The translations under genes were made by a program, and so were the position numbers. Source: Dehalococcoidia bacterium (GTDB lineage: Bacteria; Chloroflexota; Dehalococcoidia; Lucifugimonadales; JADFKI01). Taken from it: 64,000 nt of DNA. Under the pieces are notes generated by a model. The model saw only the letters and a program-made list of their open reading frames with translations, was not told the DNA's origin and did not search any database. Where the stretch lies: contig CBDESO010000003.1 of the NCBI GenBank assembly GCA_965242555.1, positions 251,385 to 315,384 of the forward strand, given 5' to 3'. Shown here one piece after another: positions 1,493 to 43,897 of this stretch. The first letter of the stretch is position 1. Each line of letters opens with the position of its first letter.

Positions 1493-1711
1493 TCGCGCGC
1501 CGCCCTGTATCGCATGCGGCTGCGCGCGGACGGGGCGGGTTGCGGCGCATGCGCGCTGACGGGTTGGGCTTGCCCAGCGCCCAAAGCCGCCTCGCCTCGC
1601 AAGCCCAACGGCCGCCGCCGCATCGTCCGCCGTTGCGCCGGCTTGGCGCGCGGGGGCATTGCCTTAGGCAAACGCTCGCGCGCCGCGCCGCCCATCCGCA
1701 TCCGAGCGCCC

Positions 1712-1740
1712 TTGCGCGCCCCGCCAACTTCGCCTATAGT
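1712..1740 (+). promoter_or_regulatory. Sigma70-like promoter of mini-gene 1 (TTGCGC-17 nt-TATAGT)
   Basis: TTGCGC 1712-1717, 17-nt spacer, TATAGT 1735-1740, 34 nt before ATG 1774. The same module recurs before two paralogs. Confidence 0.45.
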
Positions 1741-1773
1741 CTAATGGCATCAGAGGTGTTAGGGGGCAAGATA

Positions 1774-1959
1774 ATGGCAACTATGACTGATCCAATCACA
1801 GAGCGGATGGCGAGACTGGAAGGCGCCTATGAGCATCTGGCCACGAAAGCGGATTTGGCTCAGATGGAAACGCGCATGACCTGGCGTCTGATAGGCGCTA
1901 TGATGGGGATGTCGGGCATTGTCATAACGGCGGTGGCGCTTATCGTGCGGTTCTTGTAG
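1774..1959 (+). CDS. Small tail-anchored coiled-coil protein, paralog 1 (61 aa)
   Basis: Internal ATG of ORF 1540..1959. MATMTDPITERMARLEGAYEHLATKADLAQMETRMTWRLIGAMMGMSGIVITAVALIVRFL has a conserved N-box, one heptad and a C-terminal hydrophobic helix. Confidence 0.7.
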   Translation: MATMTDPITERMARLEGAYEHLATKADLAQMETRMTWRLIGAMMGMSGIVITAVALIVRFL

Positions 1960-2046
1960 CGGCCGGGCAAGTCAGTGGGGCGCGTCTGAGCGCCCTTGTT
2001 CCCCGCCAACTTCGCGCCCATCCTTGTGATTTCGTAGGATAAGCAA

Positions 2047-2241
2047 ATGGCAACTACGCCTGCCCCAATCACAGAGCGAAAGGCCCGCATGGGAGGCGCG
2101 TATGAGCATCTAGCTACCCAGGCGGATTTGGCGCATCTAGAGGCGCGCATGGCAGAGATGGAAACGCGCATGACTTGGCGTCTGATAGGCGCGTCAGGCG
2201 CGATAATAGCGGCGGTGGCGCTTATCCAAAGGTTCCTCTAG
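2047..2241 (+). CDS. Small tail-anchored coiled-coil protein, paralog 2 (64 aa)
   Basis: ORF track. Same architecture (APITERKARMGGAYEHLATQADL ... TWRLIGASGAIIAAVALIQRFL). Confidence 0.7.
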   Translation: MATTPAPITERKARMGGAYEHLATQADLAHLEARMAEMETRMTWRLIGASGAIIAAVALIQRFL

Positions 2242-2282
2242 TTCCCGCATCGGCGAGAACCGCCGTCGTCGGGGGATAAAAA

Positions 2283-2489
2283 ATGTCAACCACGACTGCC
2301 CCAATCACAGAGCGGATGGCGCGCTTGGAAGGCGCACACGAGCGTCTGGCGACAAAGGCGGACTTGGTACAGCTAGAGCTCCGCCTGACGCAGCAAATGG
2401 CGCGGATGGAATCGCGGCTGACTTGGCGCATGATAGGCGCCGCTGGCGTAATCATAGCGGCAGTGGGGCTTATCGTGCGGTTCTTGTAG
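2283..2489 (+). CDS. Small tail-anchored coiled-coil protein, paralog 3 (68 aa)
   Basis: ORF track: MSTTTAPITERMARLEGAHERLATKADL ... TWRMIGAAGVIIAAVGLIVRFL. GGGGGA precedes the ATG. Confidence 0.7.
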   Translation: MSTTTAPITERMARLEGAHERLATKADLVQLELRLTQQMARMESRLTWRMIGAAGVIIAAVGLIVRFL

Positions 2490-2513
2490 CGGCCGGCACA
2501 AGGGTTTGCGCCC

Positions 2514-2542
2514 TTGCGCCTCCCGTGAATTTCGCATATAGT
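2514..2542 (+). promoter_or_regulatory. Sigma70-like promoter of mini-gene 4 (TTGCGC-17-TATAGT)
   Basis: TTGCGC 2514-2519, TATAGT 2537-2542. Paralogous to 1712-1740 and 3058-3086. Confidence 0.45.
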
Positions 2543-2576
2543 CTAATATGTTATGAAGTGTTAGGGAGGCGAGATA

Positions 2577-2753
2577 ATGGCAACTATGACTGACCCACCA
2601 ATCACAGAGCGAATGGCGCGGCTGGAAGGCGCGTATGAGCATCTCGCCACGAAAGCGGACTTGGCGCAAATGGAAACGCGAATGACTTGGCGTCTGATAG
2701 GCGCGTCAGGCGCGATAATAGCGGCGGTGGCGCTCATCCAAAGGTTCCTCTAG
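2577..2753 (+). CDS. Small tail-anchored coiled-coil protein, paralog 4 (58 aa; below the ORF-track length cut-off)
   Basis: Hand translation from ATG 2577 to TAG 2751-2753 gives MATMTDPPITERMARLEGAYEHLATKADLAQMETRMTWRLIGASGAIIAAVALIQRFL. GGGAGG lies upstream. Confidence 0.7.
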   Translation: MATMTDPPITERMARLEGAYEHLATKADLAQMETRMTWRLIGASGAIIAAVALIQRFL

Positions 2754-2794
2754 TTCCCGCGTCGGAGAGAACCTCCGTCGTCGGGGGATAAAAA

Positions 2795-3022
2795 ATGTCA
2801 ACCACGACTGCCCCAATCACCGAGCCAATGGCGCGCTTGGAAGGCGCGTATGAGCGTCTGGCGACAAAGGCGGACTTGGTAGAACTAGAGCTCCGCCTAA
2901 CGCAGCAAATGGCGCAGATGGAATCGCGTATGGCGCAGCTAGAAACGCGCATGACTTGGCGTCTGATAGGCGCGTCAGGTGCGATAGTAGCGGCGGTGGC
3001 GCTTATTGTGCGGTTCTTGTAG
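2795..3022 (+). CDS. Small tail-anchored coiled-coil protein, paralog 5 (75 aa)
   Basis: ORF track. Same N-box and C-terminal helix, with extra heptads (LELRLTQQMAQMESRMAQLETRMT). Confidence 0.7.
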   Translation: MSTTTAPITEPMARLEGAYERLATKADLVELELRLTQQMAQMESRMAQLETRMTWRLIGASGAIVAAVALIVRFL

Positions 3023-3057
3023 CGGCCGGCAAGTCAATGGTTCGCATCCGAGCGCCC

Positions 3058-3086
3058 TTGCGCCCTACGCCAACTTCGCCTATAGT
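3058..3086 (+). promoter_or_regulatory. Sigma70-like promoter of mini-gene 6 (TTGCGC-17-TATAGT)
   Basis: TTGCGC 3058-3063, TATAGT 3081-3086. Confidence 0.45.
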
Positions 3087-3128
3087 CTAATGGTATCAGA
3101 GATTTTAGAGGTGTTAGAGGGCAAGAAA

Positions 3129-3347
3129 ATGGCAACTATGACCGACCCGCCAATCACAGAGCGCATGGCGCGATTGGAAGGCGCGTATGAGCATCTGGCG
3201 ACCAAAGCGGATGTGGCGCAGATAGAAACGCGCGTGGCGCAGATGGAAACCCGAATGGCGCAGATGGAAACGCGCATGACTTGGCGTCTGATAGGCGCGT
3301 CAGGCGCGATAATAGCGGCGGTGGCGCTCATCCAAAGGTTCCTCTAG
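3129..3347 (+). CDS. Small tail-anchored coiled-coil protein, paralog 6 (72 aa)
   Basis: Internal ATG of ORF 3006..3347. Three heptads (QIETRVA QMETRMA QMETRMT) precede TWRLIGASGAIIAAVALIQRFL. Confidence 0.7.
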   Translation: MATMTDPPITERMARLEGAYEHLATKADVAQIETRVAQMETRMAQMETRMTWRLIGASGAIIAAVALIQRFL

Positions 3348-3392
3348 TTCCCGCATCGGCGAGAACCGCCGTTGCGGGCGGGCTGAGGCGGG

Positions 3393-4160
3393 CTAGGTCT
3401 GTGCGCGGATGCGGGCGAGTTCGGCCTCCAGCTCCCTATTGCGCTCCTCAGCGGCAGCGGCGCGAGCAAGCGCGGCGTCACGCTCCCGCTCCGCTTCAAG
3501 AATCCCTATCCTGTACTCGCCGGTCTCGGGGTCTTGCGTAATGAACCGCTCGCCGCCGCCATCCCACATCAGGTTTATGCCCAGCGCCCTGCTATGCCCC
3601 CAGAATATCCCGTCAGGCTCCGCGCGCATCTCATACCGCCGGTATTCCCCGTCTGCCAGATACTCCCCCACCAACGGCTCGCCGTAAAGCGCACCGCCCG
3701 TCGGGTCAAGCCGCCAGTATTCGCCTATCCCAAGCGAGGCATAGCGGTCGCGCTTATCGGTCAGGTCATTATCCTTCGTGTGATTGGACGCCACCTCCAT
3801 CACCACATCGGGCGGCTTGCCCACTTCCCACATCAGATAGCCGTTCCTGCTCCTTATTTCCTCAACATTGACATCGAATGCAACTATGAGGTCGGGGATG
3901 AGCTTGATGTTCTTATCCGCGCGGTCCCAAGCGAGATAGCCGTCGCCCGACACCAGCACATCGGGCCTGTTGCGGAAGTGCGCGCGAACCAAATATCGGA
4001 TGTCGGTATTAGCGAATTCCTGCTGCATTGCGTCCTCAATCGGCTCGGGGTCGGGGATAAAGCTCCAGTCCGGATAGTCCTGCTCCGGCGCGACCAACCC
4101 CCGCTCCGGCGCGACCACGCCGTTGACATGCGCCCCGACGTCTATCTTGGCAGTAGTCAT
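3393..4160 (-). CDS. Uma2-family (DUF820) PD-(D/E)XK restriction-endonuclease-like protein with C-terminal coiled-coil tail
   Basis: PDLIVAF...GKPPDVVMEVASNHTKDNDLTDKRDRYASLGIGEYWRLDPTGG is the typical Uma2 core. The tail is LEAERERDAALARAAAAEERNRELEAELARIRAQT. AGGGAG lies before the ATG. Confidence 0.8.
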   Translation of the reverse strand: MTTAKIDVGAHVNGVVAPERGLVAPEQDYPDWSFIPDPEPIEDAMQQEFANTDIRYLVRAHFRNRPDVLVSGDGYLAWDRADKNIKLIPDLIVAFDVNVEEIRSRNGYLMWEVGKPPDVVMEVASNHTKDNDLTDKRDRYASLGIGEYWRLDPTGGALYGEPLVGEYLADGEYRRYEMRAEPDGIFWGHSRALGINLMWDGGGERFITQDPETGEYRIGILEAERERDAALARAAAAEERNRELEAELARIRAQT

Positions 4161-4236: not shown

Positions 4237-5153
4237 CTATCGCCGCTGATCGCGCAGACGGGCAATCTCAGCCTTAAGCCCCCTTGCGCGCGCCTCTTCG
4301 TCCTCGCGTTCTTGCCGATACTTGGCTATCTCCGCCTCGGCGGCCGCGATACGCGCCTCTGCAACCTTGCGTTCTTGCCGATACTTGGCCGTCTCCGCCT
4401 CAATCGCCCTTGTCTCCGCCCTAAACGCCTCGCGCTCCCGTATCGTTTCACGAAGTCCCTTCCAGTATTTGCCGGTCGCAGGGTCTTGCATATTGAACTG
4501 CACCTTATCCCCATCCCATATCAAGTTCACCCCATCACCCCGCTATACCCCCACATCCGCCCATCGGCATCCGCCCGCATCTCACACCGCAGATACTCCC
4601 CGTCCGCCAGATGCTCCCCCGCGAAAGGCTCGCCGTGGAGCGCGCCGTTGGTCACATCAAGCCGCCAGTATTCGCGTATGCCCAGCGCCGCGTAAATATC
4701 CCGCTTGGTCGTCAGATTGGCGTCTTTCGTACTTTCCCGCGCAATCTCTATCACCGCATCCGGCGGCTTGCCCACTTCCCAGACGAGATATGCGTTGCGC
4801 TCTATGATGCGCTTGGGATCGACGCCGAATGCCACCATAAGCGTGGGGACGAGCTTGGCGTATATGTCTGCCGGATCCCACGCGAGATAGCCGCCGCCGC
4901 CCACAAGCGCGTCCGGGCGATTGCGAAAGTGCGCCTCAAGTATCAGATAGACATCGCTTTTGACGGGAAACTGCCGCATCCCGTCCCCAACGGGATTCGG
5001 GTCGGGAACCATTCCCCAACTAGGGTATCCCCGCTCATCCGCCGCCCTTTCCCACTTTTCGCTCCCGGATTCGAACTCCGAGTCCACAAATTCATACTCT
5101 TCGGGATCCTCGCGGTTCGCAATCGCGTATTCACGTATCTTGCCGATAGCCAT
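4237..5153 (-). pseudogene. Uma2-family endonuclease paralog, split by a 1-nt frameshift in a C4/G4 run (4530-4533)
   Basis: ORF 4527..5228 ends ...WGYSGVMG*. ORF 4237..4530 continues (V)NLIWDGDKVQF..., colinear with ...WGHSRALGINLMWDGG... of the intact neighbour. The likely start is MAIGKIREY at 5153. Confidence 0.75.
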
Positions 5154-5497
5154 AAGCCATTCCCCCCTTGACGCTTGCGTTTCGCGCCATATCATTAGCA
5201 TATCCGTATCATACCACCAAACCCCCAATTAACTCAGCGCGGCATTGCCACCCACGCGAAAGTAGCGTTTCTTTTTAGATGATTTAAGAGTTCGGCAAGT
5301 TGCCATCCAAATGATAGCGCAGATAGATACGGCGATCCCATCCAACCATCCGCAATGATTGATGCGCTTGACCACCCGTATGAAAACACCACTCGCCCAA
5401 ACACCCCCCACATCCCCCAACCCTCTTATGCTACAATCTGCTATAATCCCCCCCAACGCTTGATACCTAACCCATCTCACACACAAGGACACCCCCC

Positions 5498-17475: not shown

Positions 17476-18462
17476 ATGTCCAATATGCGCTTTGCCCGCC
17501 ACAAATTTCTGCGGCTGTTCACGCCACTGTGCCTGCTGTTCTACCTGCTTATGGTGTGGCTGACGCCTATCGCAAGCACGGAGCGGAACAGCGAGATATT
17601 CCCGTTTTTTTCGTGGCGGCTGTTTGACGAAATCCCCGAAAGGTTCAAGTACACGGACGCGGTGATTGTCCATTCCATATACGGCGCGCCGGTGGACGGC
17701 GCGCGCTACATCATCCCCTCGCACATCATAGACCACACCAAGAGCCTGCGCCGCGCGATGAATGTGTGCCGCGAATCGCCGCGCTTGCAGTGCGACGCCG
17801 CGGTCCGGCGGTTTGTCGCGCCGGCGGTGAACGAAATCGTTCAGGGCGATGCGAAATTCAGCATAGTTCGCGCGTCAGTGGATCTGCGCGATTTGCAGGC
17901 GGGCATAGGCGCTATGGAATCGGGAGATGCCGACCTGTTCGCTTTCTACCGGCTGCACCGCGTTATGGGCAGATGGTCAAGCGCGGGCGATACCGCGAAC
18001 CTGTATCTGGCGGACTATGAGGCGGTGTACGAGCGCATCATCGCGGGCGATTATGGCGAGCCTGCCGCGCATGAACCCTTTCGCATCTATCGCGGCGCTG
18101 ATAGGCTGACCTATTTCAAAGCGGACTGCGCGGCGGAGGACACGCGGCGGCGGTTCTTCCTGCATCTCACGCCCGCGCGCGTCCAAGACATCCCCGGCTA
18201 CCGCCAGCAGTACGGCTTTGACAACCTTGACTTTGACTTTCAGCAGTTCGGCGAGCGGTTCGGGGGCAATTGCCTAGCCGTCGTGCCGCTGCCCGGCTAC
18301 CCGATTGAGCGCATCAAGACGGGGCAGTACATTCGCGGCGAGGGGCAGGTGTGGGATGTGGAGTTCGCGGGCGACGCGGGCGCTGAGCCGGCGGCGCGGC
18401 GGGATAGCGACGCGTCGGATGCGACGCCTGCGCCATCTGCCCGAAAGCCGAGCGCGGCATAA
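17476..18462 (+). CDS. Hypothetical protein with N-terminal TM helix
   Basis: ORF track (FLRLFTPLCLLFYLLMVWL). Its stop overlaps the next start (TAATG). Confidence 0.5.
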   Translation: MSNMRFARHKFLRLFTPLCLLFYLLMVWLTPIASTERNSEIFPFFSWRLFDEIPERFKYTDAVIVHSIYGAPVDGARYIIPSHIIDHTKSLRRAMNVCRESPRLQCDAAVRRFVAPAVNEIVQGDAKFSIVRASVDLRDLQAGIGAMESGDADLFAFYRLHRVMGRWSSAGDTANLYLADYEAVYERIIAGDYGEPAAHEPFRIYRGADRLTYFKADCAAEDTRRRFFLHLTPARVQDIPGYRQQYGFDNLDFDFQQFGERFGGNCLAVVPLPGYPIERIKTGQYIRGEGQVWDVEFAGDAGAEPAARRDSDASDATPAPSARKPSAA

Positions 18463-34056: not shown

Positions 34057-34084
34057 TTGATTGCCGGTGAAGTGATGGTATAAT
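34057..34084 (+). promoter_or_regulatory. Strong sigma70-like promoter with extended -10 (TTGATT-16-TGgTATAAT)
   Basis: TTGATT 34057-62, TG at 34076-77, TATAAT 34079-84, 100 nt before ATG 34184. Confidence 0.55.
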
Positions 34085-34183
34085 GCTCGCAAACCGAATA
34101 TAGCCTGCGCCGGCGAGTAGTTGGCGGGAAATGTTTGCGCGCGCCGTCGGACGCGGGTTTGGATTGGATGAGGAGTTGGCAGG

Positions 34184-34585
34184 ATGACAACGGCGACTGA
34201 TACGAATACGGAGCGGATTGCGCGGCTGGAGGGGGCGTATGAGCATCTGGCGACTAAGGCGGATTTGGCGCAGATGGAGTTGCGGCTGACGCAGGAGATG
34301 TCGCAGATGACGCAAGAGACGGCGCAGGCGGAGTCGCGGCTGACGCAAGAGATCACGCAGGCGGAGTCGCGGCTGACGCAAGAGACGTCGCGGCTGACGC
34401 AAGAGATGACGCAGATGGAGTCGCGGCTGACGCAAGAGATCACGCAGGCGGAGTCGCGCATGGCGCAAGAGATAGCGCAGGTGAAATCGAGCATGGCGCA
34501 GATGGAGTCGCGCATGACTTGGCGCATGATAGGCGCGGCGGGCGTAATCATTGCGGCTGTGGGGCTTATTGTGCGGTTCTTGTAG
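34184..34585 (+). CDS. Tail-anchored coiled-coil protein, elongated paralog 7 (133 aa)
   Basis: Same N-box (TERIARLEGAYEHLATKADLAQMELRLTQ) and tail (TWRMIGAAGVIIAAVGLIVRFL) as the 1.7-3.3 kb array. About 13 heptads of (Q/A)ESRLTQE(I/M)T. Confidence 0.75.
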   Translation: MTTATDTNTERIARLEGAYEHLATKADLAQMELRLTQEMSQMTQETAQAESRLTQEITQAESRLTQETSRLTQEMTQMESRLTQEITQAESRMAQEIAQVKSSMAQMESRMTWRMIGAAGVIIAAVGLIVRFL

Positions 34586-35292: not shown

Positions 35293-35667
35293 ATGATAAG
35301 CAATTATGTGGGGGTTCTGCGGAAGTACACGGCGTTCAGCGGGCGGGCTACTAGGGCGGAGTACTGGTGGTTTATGCTGACGCACTTTATTGTGGTTATG
35401 GCGCTGGGCGTACTCGCGGGGATTGGCGCGTCGCTTAATCCCGGGGAGTTGCCGAGTCTGGCGCTGCCGCTAATCGCGTATTGGATCGGCACGCTACTTC
35501 CGAGTTTGGCGGCGGTCGTGCGGCGGTTCCACGATGCGGGGTATTCTGGCTGGATGGCGCTGTTGCTGCTGATACCTACCATCGGCGGGATTATTGTGCT
35601 GGTGTTTATGGTTCTGCCGAGCGAGCGGGGGGATAATAAGCACGGGGCGTATCCGCATAGGGCGTAG
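35293..35667 (+). CDS. DUF805 family inner-membrane protein, copy 2
   Basis: VLRKYTAFSGRATRAEYWWF...RRFHDAGYSGW...PSERGDNKHG. Confidence 0.8.
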   Translation: MISNYVGVLRKYTAFSGRATRAEYWWFMLTHFIVVMALGVLAGIGASLNPGELPSLALPLIAYWIGTLLPSLAAVVRRFHDAGYSGWMALLLLIPTIGGIIVLVFMVLPSERGDNKHGAYPHRA

Positions 35668-35780
35668 AGGGCGCAAGCGCAAGAGGGGCGGCCGGCGGGA
35701 ATGACGCGGGGGCGGCTTAAGGCGCGCGGGCGACGAAGGTTGTCCGTTCAGGGCATAGTCAAGCGGGGGAGTTAAGCGGG

Positions 35781-36167
35781 ATGTTTATCGTCAATAATTA
35801 TGTGGGCGTGCTGTCCAAGTATGCGGGGTTTAGGGGAAGGGCTACGCGGTCGGAGTACTGGCTGTTCGTGCTGGCGAGCGTTGTCGTCTCAATCGTGGTG
35901 GGGATAGTGGGGAGTGTGCTGGGGCTGACGATTGGCGAGGGCGCCGGGGCTCCGAATATCCTGAGCCTGGCGTACACGCTGGCGGTGCTGCTGCCGTCTA
36001 TCGCGGTGATGGTTCGGCGGTTTCACGACGCCGGGCATTCGGGGTGGATGGCGCTGCTGATTCTGATACCCATAATCGGGCTGATCGCGGTGATTGTGTT
36101 TATGATTCTGCCTAGTCAGCAGGGGGATAATAGGCACGGGCCGGATCCGCGCGGGATGGCTGCGTAA
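35781..36167 (+). CDS. DUF805 family inner-membrane protein, copy 3
   Basis: VLSKYAGFRGRATRSEYWLF...RRFHDAGHSGW...PSQQGDNRHG. Confidence 0.8.
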   Translation: MFIVNNYVGVLSKYAGFRGRATRSEYWLFVLASVVVSIVVGIVGSVLGLTIGEGAGAPNILSLAYTLAVLLPSIAVMVRRFHDAGHSGWMALLILIPIIGLIAVIVFMILPSQQGDNRHGPDPRGMAA

Positions 36168-36198
36168 GGCGGGCAATCGGCGGGAACAACGCGGGGAC

Positions 36199-36236
36199 GC
36201 CGCTTTTTGTGAAAGAGCGGCCAAAAGGCTTTTGGG
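36199..36236 (+). repeat. Intergenic hairpin element (copy 4)
   Basis: GCCGCTTTTTGTGAAAGAGCGGCCAAAAGGCTTTTGGG. Confidence 0.55.
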
Positions 36237-36265
36237 CGTCAGGGATAATCGGGGGATAATCAGGG

Positions 36266-36640
36266 ATGATATTCATCAGCAATTACATCGGGGTTCTGCG
36301 GGAGTACGCGGAGTTTGACGGGCGAGCGTCTAGGGCGGAGTTCTGGTGGTTCGCGCTGGCGCAGGCGGTTGTGTTCGTGGCGCTTTGGGCGGTGGTTCAG
36401 GCGCTGCCGAGGCCGCTTAACGCGCTGTTCACGGGGATTAGCGTTATGTATATCATCGGGACGCTGCTGCCGATGCTGGGGCTAACGATGCGGCGGTTTC
36501 ATGACGCGGGATACTCGCGGTGGATGGCGCTGATGTGGCTGGTTCCGGTGGTTGGTTGGGTTGTGATGGCCGGGTTTATGGCGCGGCCGAGCGTGGCGGG
36601 GGATGATGAGGGGGATGCGAGCGGGGACGTCGCCGAGTAG
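36266..36640 (+). CDS. DUF805 family inner-membrane protein, copy 4
   Basis: VLREYAEFDGRASRAEFWWF...RRFHDAGYSRW. Confidence 0.8.
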   Translation: MIFISNYIGVLREYAEFDGRASRAEFWWFALAQAVVFVALWAVVQALPRPLNALFTGISVMYIIGTLLPMLGLTMRRFHDAGYSRWMALMWLVPVVGWVVMAGFMARPSVAGDDEGDASGDVAE

Positions 36641-36667
36641 GATGCGGGGGCGCAGGGGGATGTTCGG

Positions 36668-37033
36668 GTGATTATCGTCAGGAACTATGTCGGCGTTCTG
36701 CGTAAGTACGCGGTGTTTAGGGGGCGGGCGACGCTGTCGGAGTACTGGTGGTTTGCGCTGGCGCACTTTGTCGCACTCATCGCGCTCAACATACTCGGCA
36801 GGATTGGCTCGCCGGAGGATTTCCCATGGATCTTGCCGTTTTATCTGTATTATCTTGGCACAATTATTCCCTTTTTAGCGCTGACCGTGCGCCGATTCCA
36901 CGACAGGGGACATTCGGGCTGGATGATATTGCTCGGCTTACTCGGCTGGTTTATCGTGCTTATCTTTATGGCGCTGCCGAGCGAGCGGAGGGATAATAAG
37001 CATGGGCCGTATCCGCACTGGACGAGGGCGTAA
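36668..37033 (+). CDS. DUF805 family inner-membrane protein, copy 5 (GTG start)
   Basis: VLRKYAVFRGRATLSEYWWF...RRFHDRGHSGW...PSERRDNKHG. Confidence 0.75.
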   Translation: MIIVRNYVGVLRKYAVFRGRATLSEYWWFALAHFVALIALNILGRIGSPEDFPWILPFYLYYLGTIIPFLALTVRRFHDRGHSGWMILLGLLGWFIVLIFMALPSERRDNKHGPYPHWTRA

Positions 37034-37051
37034 GGGATAAAGCGCGGGGAT

Positions 37052-37089
37052 GCTACTTTTTGTAAGAGAGTAGGCAAAGAACTTTTGGG
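37052..37089 (+). repeat. Intergenic hairpin element (copy 5)
   Basis: GCTACTTTTTGTAAGAGAGTAGGCAAAGAACTTTTGGG. Confidence 0.6.
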
Positions 37090-37141
37090 TGTGTGGGCAG
37101 CGAAATTGCCCGTTTAAGCATAGACAAGGCGGAGCTGACCG

Positions 37142-37579
37142 ATGGTTTTCAGGGCGTATTGGGGGGCACTGAGGCAGTATGCGCGGGTTGACGGGCGCAC
37201 TGCGCGGGCGGAGTTCTGGGGGTTCGCGCTGGTTCATCTGGGGGTTTTGGCGGCGCTGCTGGTCGTGGGCGGGTTGATGGGGGCGGTTGTGGGCGTGAAT
37301 ACCACGGATTTGGTTACGACGGTGAATGTGCCGGCGCTGGTTATCACGATTAGCGTGCCGGCGGCGGTGTATTCGGTGGCGACGCTGCCGCCGACTATCG
37401 GGGTCGCGGTCAGGCGGCTGCATGACGCGGGCTATACGGGGTGGCTGACGCTGCTGTGGTTTGTGTCCATTCCGCCTTTTGGGCAGGTGATATTGGCGGT
37501 GTTTCTGCTGTTGCCAAGCGAGGTTGGGGATAATCGGTTTGGGGCGGATCCGCGTGGGGATGGCGCGGACGGCGGGTAG
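37142..37579 (+). CDS. DUF805 family inner-membrane protein, copy 6
   Basis: ALRQYARVDGRTARAEFWGF...RRLHDAGYTGW...PSEVGDNRFG. Confidence 0.8.
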   Translation: MVFRAYWGALRQYARVDGRTARAEFWGFALVHLGVLAALLVVGGLMGAVVGVNTTDLVTTVNVPALVITISVPAAVYSVATLPPTIGVAVRRLHDAGYTGWLTLLWFVSIPPFGQVILAVFLLLPSEVGDNRFGADPRGDGADGG

Positions 37580-39896: not shown

Positions 39897-40730
39897 TTAT
39901 TCGCGGGGTGGTTGGCTGAGTTGGGCTTGGAGTTCGGCTAGGCGGGTTTCTAGGGCTTGGCGGGCGGCTTGTTCTTGCTCAGCGCGGGATTCGGCGGCTA
40001 AGCGGGCGGCTTGTTCTTGGTCGGCGCGGGATTCGGCGGCTAAGCGGCCGGCTTGTTCCTGGTCGGCGCGGGATTCGGCGGCCAAGCGGCCGGCACGTTC
40101 TGCCAACCGCTGCTCGTGTTCGTCCTCATAGTTGAGCAGCCACTCTTCGGCGACGGGATCCCAGTAGCGCAGGTCGCCGGCGTCCCAGTAGAGGGCTAGG
40201 TTCAATGCGGGGCTGTGGGCCCAGACGCGGCCGTCGTCGTCTTCGCGCATCTGCAAGGGCTGATACTCGCCGTTGACTAGACGCTCGCCTACCAAGGGAT
40301 CGCCGTAGAAGTCGCCGCCGGTCTGGTCGTAGCGCCAGTATTCGGGTATGCCCAGTTCGGCGTACAAGGCGCGCTTGCCGATGAGGTCGTTGGATTTGGT
40401 GCTTTTTGAGGCTATCTCCATTACGAAGTCGGGGGGCTTGCCTACTTCCCATAGCAGGTAGGTGTTGTTGCCCTCCTCCGATAGGGAATGTATTGCCTCA
40501 GGCGTAATGCCGAACACTACATAGCAGTCGGGGGATACCGATTGGTTGGGGTCGCCCTCTACATAGTAGAGGAGGGTGTTGCCGTTGACATGAGATCCCG
40601 GGACTTCTCTGAAGTGGTTTTCCAGCGGGGTGAGGGCTTTTCTGAAGATGAGGGATTGGTATTCTCCGTCGGGCATGGGCTGACCGTCCGTTTCCGGGTA
40701 GATGATGGCGGTTTGGGTTTGGGTGGTCAT
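39897..40730 (-). CDS. Uma2-family endonuclease with repeat-containing coiled-coil tail
   Basis: GKPPDFVMEIASKSTKSNDLIGKRALYAELGIPEYWRYDQTGG. The tail carries three copies of AGRLAAESRADQEQ. Confidence 0.8.
   Translation of the reverse strand: MTTQTQTAIIYPETDGQPMPDGEYQSLIFRKALTPLENHFREVPGSHVNGNTLLYYVEGDPNQSVSPDCYVVFGITPEAIHSLSEEGNNTYLLWEVGKPPDFVMEIASKSTKSNDLIGKRALYAELGIPEYWRYDQTGGDFYGDPLVGERLVNGEYQPLQMREDDDGRVWAHSPALNLALYWDAGDLRYWDPVAEEWLLNYEDEHEQRLAERAGRLAAESRADQEQAGRLAAESRADQEQAARLAAESRAEQEQAARQALETRLAELQAQLSQPPRE
39966..40091 (-). repeat. 42-bp tandem coding repeat x3 (14-aa units) in the Uma2 tail
   Basis: ggcttgttcttg(c/g)tc(a/g)gcgcgggattcggcggc(t/c)aagcgg(g/c)c repeated at 39966, 40008 and 40050. 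Confidence 0.75.
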
Positions 40731-43039: not shown

Positions 43040-43897
43040 TTATTCGCGGGGCGGTTGGCGGAGTTGGGCTTGGAGTTCGGCTAGGCGGGATTCTAGGGCT
43101 TGGCGTGCGGCTTGCTCCTCTAAACGCGCGGCTTGCTCTTGGGCGATGCGGGATTCGGCGGCTTGGGCGCGGTCTTCAGCGGCCTCGCGCGCGGCTTGCT
43201 CTGCCAAACGGCCGGCTTGTTCTTGGTCGGCGCGGGATTCGGCTACTTCCGCGCGCTCTTCGGCTGCCAGTCGCCCGACGTGATCTTCTTCGTGGTTGCG
43301 TAGCCACTTTTCGGCGACGGGATCCCAGAAACGCAGATCGCCGTCGTCCCAGTATAGGTCTAGGTTCAACGCGTCGCTGCGCGCCCATATGCGGCCGTCT
43401 TCGTCTTCGCGCATTTGTAGCGGCTGATATTCGCTGTCAACTAAACGCTCGCCGACAAGCGGCTCGCCGTAGAAGTCGCCGCCGGTCTGGTCGTAGCGCC
43501 AGTATTCGCCTATGCCCAAGCTCGCGTACAATGCGCGCTTGCCGGTGAGGTCGTTGGACTTAGTGCTATATGACGCTACCTCCAGCACGAAGTCGGGCGG
43601 CTTGCCCACTTCCCAAAGGCGATAGGTGTTGTTGCGGTTTATGTTTTCCTGTTGCTCCGGGGACAATCCCGTAGCCACATAGCAGTCGGGGGAGACGGAT
43701 ATGTTGGGGTTGCCCTCTATGTAGTATAGGAATGTGTTGCCGTTGACGCGGACGGCGGGGGAGTGGCGGAAGTGCGTGCGGAGCGTGGTGAGCGCGTCCG
43801 CTTGTATGGGGGCTTGGTATTCTCCGTCGGGCATGGGTTGACCGTCCGATTCTGGGTAGATGATGGCGGTTTGTTGGATAGCAGTTTGGGTGGTCAT
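43040..43897 (-). CDS. Uma2-family endonuclease with coiled-coil tail
   Basis: GKPPDFVLEVASYSTKSNDLTGKRALYASLGIGEYWRYDQTGG. Ala/Glu/Arg-rich tail ending LAELQAQLRQPPRE. Confidence 0.8.
   Translation of the reverse strand: MTTQTAIQQTAIIYPESDGQPMPDGEYQAPIQADALTTLRTHFRHSPAVRVNGNTFLYYIEGNPNISVSPDCYVATGLSPEQQENINRNNTYRLWEVGKPPDFVLEVASYSTKSNDLTGKRALYASLGIGEYWRYDQTGGDFYGEPLVGERLVDSEYQPLQMREDEDGRIWARSDALNLDLYWDDGDLRFWDPVAEKWLRNHEEDHVGRLAAEERAEVAESRADQEQAGRLAEQAAREAAEDRAQAAESRIAQEQAARLEEQAARQALESRLAELQAQLRQPPRE

Follow-up and report, generated by a model that had tools for sequence, protein, structure and literature searches.

What do six very short, closely related genes lying one after another in a bacterial genome encode, and why do their products differ in length? 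The genes in question stand near the beginning of a 64,000-nucleotide (nt) stretch of contig CBDESO010000003.1 from a Dehalococcoidia bacterium (positions 251,385 to 315,384; this whole stretch is referred to below as the window). As a preliminary description of the sequence had reported, they lie on the + strand, between positions 1774 and 3347 of the window, and encode proteins of 58-75 amino acids (aa). The explanation that best accounts for them, and that we consider probable, is that the array arose by lineage-specific expansion and that its products are minimal relatives, lacking the head, of the DUF1640/CCDC90-like (MCUR1-type) membrane proteins. The six genes, together with a seventh member of the family located elsewhere in the window, are as follows, with stop codons included in the coordinates.

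1774-1959, + strand: gene 1, 61 aa; N-box, LATKAD, minimal 8-residue stalk, transmembrane helix, end VRFL.
2047-2241, + strand: gene 2, 64 aa; stalk of 8+7 residues, neck LATQAD, tail QRFL.
2283-2489, + strand: gene 3, 68 aa; stalk of 8+11 residues (one hendecad, LELRLTQQMAR), tail VRFL.
2577-2753, + strand: gene 4, 58 aa; minimal 8-residue stalk, tail QRFL.
2795-3022, + strand: gene 5, 75 aa; stalk of 8+11+7 residues, tail VRFL; 21-nt tandem repeat at 2909-2953.
3129-3347, + strand: gene 6, 72 aa; stalk of 8+7+7 residues, tail QRFL; three 21-nt repeats at 3213-3275.
34184-34585, + strand: seventh family member, 133 aa; same N-box, LATKAD and anchor, 84-residue stalk; E = 3.6e-50 with the family hidden Markov model (HMM).

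The true ATG codons of genes 1 and 6 lie inside longer, mechanically called open reading frames (ORFs; 1540.. and 3006.., respectively), and the products of genes 2 and 4 are identical to database proteins P0084 and P0100, which come from a 544-kb contig. Each protein is built from four parts: a 21-residue N-box, the LATKAD motif, a stalk made of repeats, and a C-terminal transmembrane helix. The common N-box, ITERMARLEGAYEHLATKADL, and the common tail, TWRLIGASGAIIAAVALI(Q/V)RFL, are as first described, and the picture of tail-anchored, coiled-coil mini-proteins is borne out by a single C-terminal hydrophobic window in each sequence and by an AlphaFold2 monomer consisting of one helix (residues 9-74, with a predicted local distance difference test score, pLDDT, of 74). 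The hydrophobic window spans 17 residues with a mean Kyte-Doolittle value of 1.9-2.3 and is followed by only 1-4 residues; two or three Lys/Arg residues are located just before it and none or one after it. In gene 1, the sequence AMMGMSG is inserted within the hydrophobic helix.

The neck has a published counterpart. Inserts of six or nine residues, MATKDD(IAN), in heptad coiled coils form a β-layer, with a consensus of [aliphatic]-A-T-K-[polar]-[DE], and all of the constructs in which this was demonstrated were trimeric (Hartmann et al., eLife 2016, PMC4786415). The same work noted the motif in DUF1640 membrane proteins of prokaryotes and mitochondria, at the point where the C-terminal stalk begins. 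According to PMC6801532, which cites Adlakha et al. 2019, MCUR1 comprises a head, a β-layer neck, a stalk, and a transmembrane domain, the first three of which are located in the matrix. The window proteins carry the motif [aliphatic]-A-T-K-x-[DE] where their stalk begins, as LATKAD in genes 1 and 3-7 (the 133-aa paralog being counted as the seventh) and as LATQAD in gene 2. Conservation across 231 diverse relatives is highest in R-x-x-R-L-E-G-x-Y-E-H-L-A-T-K-A-D, within which the A, T, K, and D of A-T-K-x-D are 97-100% conserved. The register can be followed through this region: I8, M12, L15, and Y19 occupy the d, a, d, and a core positions of a two-heptad N-terminal cap, E20 and H21 are at b and c, L22, A23, and T24 form the putative β-layer, K25, A26, and D27 are at e, f, and g, and L28 returns to a. 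The segment from Y19 to L28 is consistent with a nonad inserted after a c position, as the published rule would have it.

Between ATKAD and TWR, the stalk is composed of 7-residue units (METRMAQ), with a hydrophobic spacing of 4-3, and of 11-residue units (LELRLTQQMAQ), with a spacing of 4-4-3. The preliminary description had attributed the differences in length to heptad number; heptads do vary, but the hendecads make them only half of the picture. Stalk length is equal to 8+7a+11b in every one of 136 distinct family sequences, over a range of 8-103 residues. The eight non-zero length classes with no more than 33 extra residues all fall among the 11 representable values of 33, an outcome that, by rough arithmetic, arbitrary lengths would produce about once in 6,000 times. 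It follows that neck and anchor stay in register with one another. Repetition is equally evident in the DNA, where a repeat search returned families of 5-6 copies across the array. The repeated two-gene unit that had been proposed is seen as a 92% match of 2143-2416 to 2655-2928, with a 512-nt period, and alignment of 2242-2794 with 2754-3392 reveals in-frame indels of 21 and 42 nt. Tandem Repeats Finder likewise recovers the 21-nt repeats already noticed, at 2909-2953 and 3213-3275, and the stalk of the 133-aa paralog consists of 33-, 21-, 54-, and 87-nt tandem repeats.

Differences in repeat number, as anticipated, are found among orthologs as well as paralogs. The orthologs at the long-paralog locus differ by whole repeats, being of 133 aa in the window and in L004 (relatives are designated here by locus, L, or protein, P, numbers), 107 aa in L012, and 111 aa for P0008, and at another locus orthologs are of 68 and ~79 aa. 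Stalk length thus changes via the in-frame gain or loss of 21- and 33-nt repeats. Gene number varies too. The array locus is syntenic in four assemblies, in each of which the array is followed by Uma2, a luciferase-like monooxygenase, and DUF6282, and it contains six genes in the window, four in L001, three in L011, and three in L013. The flanks of these syntenic loci are 89-94% identical, the 94% belonging to L001, which is on a closed chromosome (OZ251547.1). The arrays themselves are not colinear, and the best nucleotide matches criss-cross between copies: gene 1 of L001 has the upstream region and first 85 nt of window gene 1, and over its whole length is nearest to window gene 5 (90.8%). 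Similarly, the three QRFL-type genes are nearly identical over ~100 nt at their 3' ends and divergent over the remainder, and the types of N terminus, stalk, and anchor occur in 33 combinations. The criss-cross matches and varying gene number fit unequal crossing-over or gene conversion. In all three of the other lineages checked, the more distant members of the family exist as single copies amid unrelated housekeeping genes, and the arrays are therefore a lineage-specific expansion.

The frames of the mini-genes are coding and under purifying selection. Over 18 ortholog and paralog pairs, the ratio of nonsynonymous (dN) to synonymous (dS) substitution rates, calculated by the method of Nei and Gojobori, is 0.02-0.37. 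For the individual genes, dN/dS is 0.07-0.09 for gene 1 against paralogs and relatives, 0.26-0.33 for gene 2, 0.09-0.21 for gene 3 against the L001 and L011 orthologs, 0.02 (with dS of 0.32) for gene 4 against gene 6, 0.11-0.19 for gene 5 against the 75-aa orthologs of L001 and L011, and 0.08 for gene 6 against L001:10779. The preliminary description had named equal synonymous and nonsynonymous change in relatives as an outcome that would count against it; selection on the reading frames is what was seen instead, and that objection falls. Among the window paralogs, dS is 0.3-0.66 and dN 0.008-0.07, from which it follows that the copies are old and have been maintained by purifying selection. 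Two other explanations were considered and rejected: an assembly artefact is ruled out by these paralog dS values and by the presence of arrays in four independent assemblies, and a noncoding repeat is ruled out by dN/dS.

To what family do these proteins belong? The close family numbers 132 homologs of 50-111 aa, all of which were found in Dehalococcoidia-type assemblies in scans of genomes and metagenome-assembled genomes (MAGs). A profile of the family retrieves 565 representatives at E≤1e-3 from 1.84 billion proteins, mostly of 60-130 aa and with the same architecture, and a broader profile identifies at least 2866 proteins among 8000 scored candidates. Few of the latter have source names, and these read "hypothetical protein" with the single exception of "flagellar capping protein FliD," apparently a misannotation; for most, no Pfam domain is recorded. 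Scans of the six array proteins against Pfam, NCBIfam, and PHROGs gave nothing over a curated cut-off, and a literature search on LATKAD-type strings found nothing relevant. A scan of JGI metagenomes returned distant relatives only (≤47% identity over short segments) and no further arrays. PF27276, precomputed on some relatives, was considered and set aside: it is a weak match to a family named 'MJ0349' and not a model of the mini-protein family.

The link to DUF1640 (PF07798) comes from profile comparisons. Of the 146 best distant relatives, 51 match PF07798 at E≤0.01, more than match any other family (DUF2730, 40; XhlA, 18). Five head-bearing proteins retrieved by the family profile at E values of 1e-9 to 1e-6 from the same 1.84 billion proteins pass the PF07798 cut-off, with scores of 36.8-53.4 bits (P0156, at 53.4 bits, P0265, P0245, P0250, and P0252). 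Alignment with hhalign against head-bearing PF07798 members gives a probability of 98.9% (E 2.6e-17) over the last repeat and anchor, and the profile of N-box and neck gives 90.8% (E 1.2e-6) over the neck. The neck aligns to template columns 38-55 and the anchor to columns 114-154; nothing aligned to the head columns. The best Pfam match of the 133-aa paralog is also PF07798 (24.3 bits, E 3.2e-5, profile positions 117-173 only), and among the six array proteins gene 5 alone matches it, with 14.6 bits. The resemblance to DUF1640 originally suggested thus holds as distant homology by profile, but the head is absent and the scores are under the Pfam cut-off. With neck, stalk, and anchor present and the head and Pfam score lacking, the proteins are not filed as members of PF07798; judged by their sequences, they are head-less, unannotated, sub-threshold relatives of the DUF1640/CCDC90-like proteins. 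Relatives in Gemmatimonadales MAGs (L007-L010; 33-39% identity) are also distant: the common part is only the juxtamembrane motif LAQLESRLTWRM and the anchor, and their N-terminal coiled coil is of another, longer type in which no ATKAD neck is obvious.

A structural picture can be drawn from this relationship. The proteins would be tail-anchored with a cytoplasmic N terminus, and parallel trimers would keep the conserved N-cap at a set distance from the membrane, the predicted stalk height being ~1-4 nm for the six array products and ~13 nm for the 133-aa paralog. With both neck and anchor in register, paralogs of unequal stalk length might sort into separate homotrimers: neck and anchor must share register, and so a difference of 7 or 11 residues would block co-assembly. 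By analogy with MCUR1, our best guess is that the proteins may serve as scaffolds or spacers at the cytoplasmic face of the membrane, rather than as toxins, holins, or partners of Uma2. A bolder extension, tentative and in our estimation rather doubtful, is that the paralogs constitute length-coded, mutually exclusive homotrimeric stalks that present the same N-cap at discrete heights, retuned between strains by repeat slippage or unequal crossover.

Several considerations weigh against the assignment to the DUF1640/CCDC90 lineage and the picture derived from it. The DUF1640 head domain is absent, with just 21 residues preceding LATKAD, and every window protein scores under the PF07798 cut-off of 33.5 bits. 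The composition of coiled coils and transmembrane segments can inflate profile scores. Sequence searching found no significant match to a chain of the PDB, the best relevant one being the Tcar0761 construct 5apz at E = 0.15. The fifth position of the motif is occupied by Ala, not by a polar residue. The trimeric state, β-layer, and topology would follow from motif and homology, and the model of the monomer shows nothing more than a plain helix. Across the loci, no partner gene proved to be conserved, and the scaffold or spacer role is speculation, as is the idea of sorting by length.

What else might such proteins be? One suggestion, which we regard as unlikely, is that they are phage-derived lysis or holin-accessory proteins of the XhlA/DUF2730 type, or membrane toxins of type I toxin-antitoxin systems, in which the coiled coil oligomerizes a membrane-damaging helix. 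Sub-threshold matches to XhlA (PF10779; ≤15.8 bits for array genes and 20.4 bits for the 133-aa paralog), DUF2730, and DUF1515 lend it some substance, as do the DUF2730 and XhlA matches among the 146 relatives, weak matches to PHROGs of unknown function (phrog_736, 1.3e-5; phrog_9415, 8.9e-7), and the occurrence of distant N-box relatives in viral contigs, for example beside P2-like tail genes (L018, 1040-1342). All of these scores are, however, under curated cut-offs: XhlA membership calls for 34.7 bits and a phage lysis cassette, neither of which applies to the window proteins, and DUF2730 (PF10805) for 24.9 bits, compared with a window maximum of 13.9 bits; the precomputed DUF2730 matches of close relatives are weak or faint. 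No phage, integrase, or lysis genes are found near any of the loci, the neighbors being housekeeping genes (CoA-transferases, a luciferase-like monooxygenase, UvrB, cytidylate kinase, and an ABC transporter), and tblastn against 50,697 phage records gave no match. Positions that are syntenic across genomes and genes under purifying selection also argue against a phage origin or toxin function, and the presence of at least seven copies in 64 kilobases (kb), and at least ten in a related genome, several with their own promoter-like block, is hard to square with lethality. No antisense RNA came to light, although none was looked for, and the only Rfam entries in the window are two tRNAs. The topology could alternatively be reversed. 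Stalks facing outward, with the N terminus outside, could act as spacers of the envelope or S-layer or as variable surface structures, for which repeat variation would be a contingency mechanism. The polymorphism of repeat and copy number among close relatives does recall the contingency loci of surface proteins, and a signal peptide is not, in principle, required for the translocation of short N-terminal domains. We nevertheless think this quite improbable. There is no signal peptide, the N-terminal region is highly charged (10-14 such residues in each of the six array proteins, 30 in the 133-aa paralog), and positive charge is located on the N-terminal side of the helix. Low dN/dS carries no sign of diversifying selection, and the head, neck, and stalk of the homologous MCUR1 face the matrix, the equivalent of the cytoplasm (PMC6801532).

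The neighboring genes raise the further idea that array and adjacent Uma2 nucleases form one system, possibly in defense, in which a membrane-anchored coiled coil docks or regulates the nucleases. Each of the four syntenic versions of the locus has one or two Uma2 genes after the array, the C termini of both Uma2 proteins beside the window array are coiled-coil, and the window Uma2 genes match the PADLOC candidate PDC-S03. ATK-type β-layer coiled coils have been noted fused to PD-(D/E)XK endonucleases (DUF3782) as well as in free-standing versions (PMC4786415). The two convergent Uma2 genes with coiled-coil tails that the preliminary description recorded are real, but the second is frameshifted and they are not a consistent partner across loci: no Uma2 lies within 10 kb of the family genes at L002, L003, L005, and L006 or within 6 kb at L014 and L015, and none is found beside the more distant family members of other lineages (L045-L050). 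Furthermore, the convergent orientation means that the genes are not co-transcribed, the Uma2 tails are without an ATKxD motif, and none of the six mini-proteins has any PADLOC match. Uma2 genes are frequent here, with four copies in 64 kb, and it is this density that explains their apparent linkage to the array. We consider a joint system very unlikely.

Returning to the DUF1640/CCDC90-like array, the regions between the genes contain repeated elements that may govern its expression, and the long paralog has an upstream region of its own:

1697..1765, + strand: promoter-like block, CTTGCGC-N17-TATAGTCTAAT and then a GGGGG Shine-Dalgarno-like run, upstream of gene 1.
2499..2567, + strand: promoter-like block upstream of gene 4.
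3043..3111, + strand: promoter-like block upstream of gene 6.
2242..2282, + strand: 41-nt spacer with predicted hairpin (-18.7 kcal/mol, z = -2.55).
2754..2794, + strand: second copy of the 41-nt spacer with predicted hairpin (-20.4 kcal/mol, z = -3.05).
34076..34183, + strand: region upstream of the long paralog, with an exact TGGTATAAT (extended -10) and then a ~95-nt leader with predicted hairpin.

The 69-nt promoter-like block is a three-copy direct repeat (family D5), and its exact pattern occurs three times in 64 kb, before genes 1, 4, and 6, with none expected by chance. It is present twice in the L001 array and twice in that of L011, a degenerate copy lies upstream of gene 2, and in more distant relatives a different block with a TACAAT box takes the same place. 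A TTGCGC-17-TATAGT promoter had been proposed on first inspection; the block is conserved, but the -35 hexamer matches at only 3/6 positions, and the sites were consequently not called in a σ70 scan, in which no + strand terminator was found either. We infer separate promoters before genes 1, 4, and 6. The 41-nt spacers lie after QRFL-type genes, and in their predicted hairpin part of the next gene's GGGGG ribosome-binding run is base-paired. Between the two copies there is one compensatory change (CGGCG/CGCCG to CGGAG/CUCCG; C-G to A-U), and a counterpart is located at 10448-10489 of L001. The hairpin may be an element of translational coupling or RNA stability. For the long paralog, the leader has 84% mean column identity over five loci (window, L002, L003, L004, and L012); its consensus fold includes only two pairs with compensatory change, covariation that is too thin for a structure to be claimed. 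A promoter role for TGGTATAAT, like structure in the leader, is a prediction from the sequence.

Other features of the window are recorded here for completeness. Its four Uma2-family (PD-(D/E)XK) genes are located at 3393-4160, 4237-5228, 39897-40730, and ~43328-43846. The second of these (4237-5228, - strand) is split into two frames, 4527-5228 and 4237-4530, by a 1-nt deletion in a run of C residues near 4529 relative to the intact, 317-aa L011 ortholog. Identity to that ortholog in the vicinity of the deletion is 96%, and the explanation is either that the gene is a pseudogene or that long-read assembly introduced a homopolymer error. Upstream of the array (164-1492, + strand) is a 442-aa ORF containing ~300 residues of Pro/Thr-rich repeats (TPTPTxTQT) and a C-terminal region of ~130 residues that looks globular, with no Pfam match; in the equivalent region of L011, a gene was called on the other strand. 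The long paralog is closely followed (35293-37579, + strand) by four tandem DUF805 genes encoding small membrane proteins of 124, 128, 124, and 145 aa (Pfam E values of 1e-22 to 1e-33), an arrangement that is syntenic with L012.

What emerges is the definition of a large, unnamed family of small proteins, recognizable by the N-box ERvSRLEGaYEH-LATKAD and missed by current Pfam and NCBIfam models, with at least ~2,900 members in a 90%-identity database. The family is tied to the lineage of MCUR1 and CCDC90B, the ancestral function of which remains debated. It provides a natural series in which a β-layer neck is combined with heptads and hendecads and length changes preserve register, which should be convenient for structural work on coiled coils, and a locus at which gene number and repeat number both vary among close, uncultured Dehalococcoidia relatives. 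The value of these observations is moderate, because neither a new mechanism nor a function is revealed. Were the notion of length-coded stalks to prove true, however, this previously undefined, head-less family would contain a natural molecular-ruler kit.

How, then, do these proteins compare with known systems? XhlA (PF10779), DUF2730 (PF10805), and DUF1515 (PF07439) share with them a short N-terminal coiled coil and one transmembrane helix, along with weak reciprocal profile matches, and some of these proteins carry HLATKAD (L018, L020); unlike them, the window genes are found in a chromosomal, syntenic, housekeeping context with no lysis cassette. The genes in viral contigs, at 1040-1342 of L018 and ~4900-5270 of L020, encode HVATKAD or HLATKAD and a transmembrane helix, and that of L018 adjoins P2-like tail genes (gpD-like, tape measure). 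The module of neck, stalk, and anchor therefore also circulates in prophages. Two divergent small paralogs in one Dehalococcoidia genome (L002, 14517-14738 on the + strand and 17539-17730 on the - strand), with MATLEKRVATIEGTIPHL(P/A)TKADLKDLE..., have a longer hydrophobic tail, like the viral-contig variants.

The DUF1640/CCDC90-like proteins (human MCUR1 and CCDC90B, and their yeast and prokaryotic counterparts) have in common with the window proteins a [LV]ATK[AST]D neck leading into a coiled-coil stalk rich in repeats, together with a juxtamembrane A-x-LE-x-R-L-x-W motif and one transmembrane helix at the C terminus. They differ in that the window proteins are headless, with a distinct and strongly conserved N-box (ERvSRLEGaYEH), have only 58-133 aa whereas the PF07798 profile alone has 175 positions, and form tandem paralog arrays with quantized variation in length. 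The α/β coiled coils of the Tcar0761 type (MATKDD nonads, 5apz) belong to the same sequence class of β-layer, [aliphatic]-A-T-K-x-[DE], and the rule derived from them, which places the layer after a c position and has the helix resume at e downstream of it, also fits the window proteins. Where Tcar0761 strings together 14 consecutive nonads, however, the window proteins have a single one, followed by heptads and hendecads, and are anchored in the membrane.

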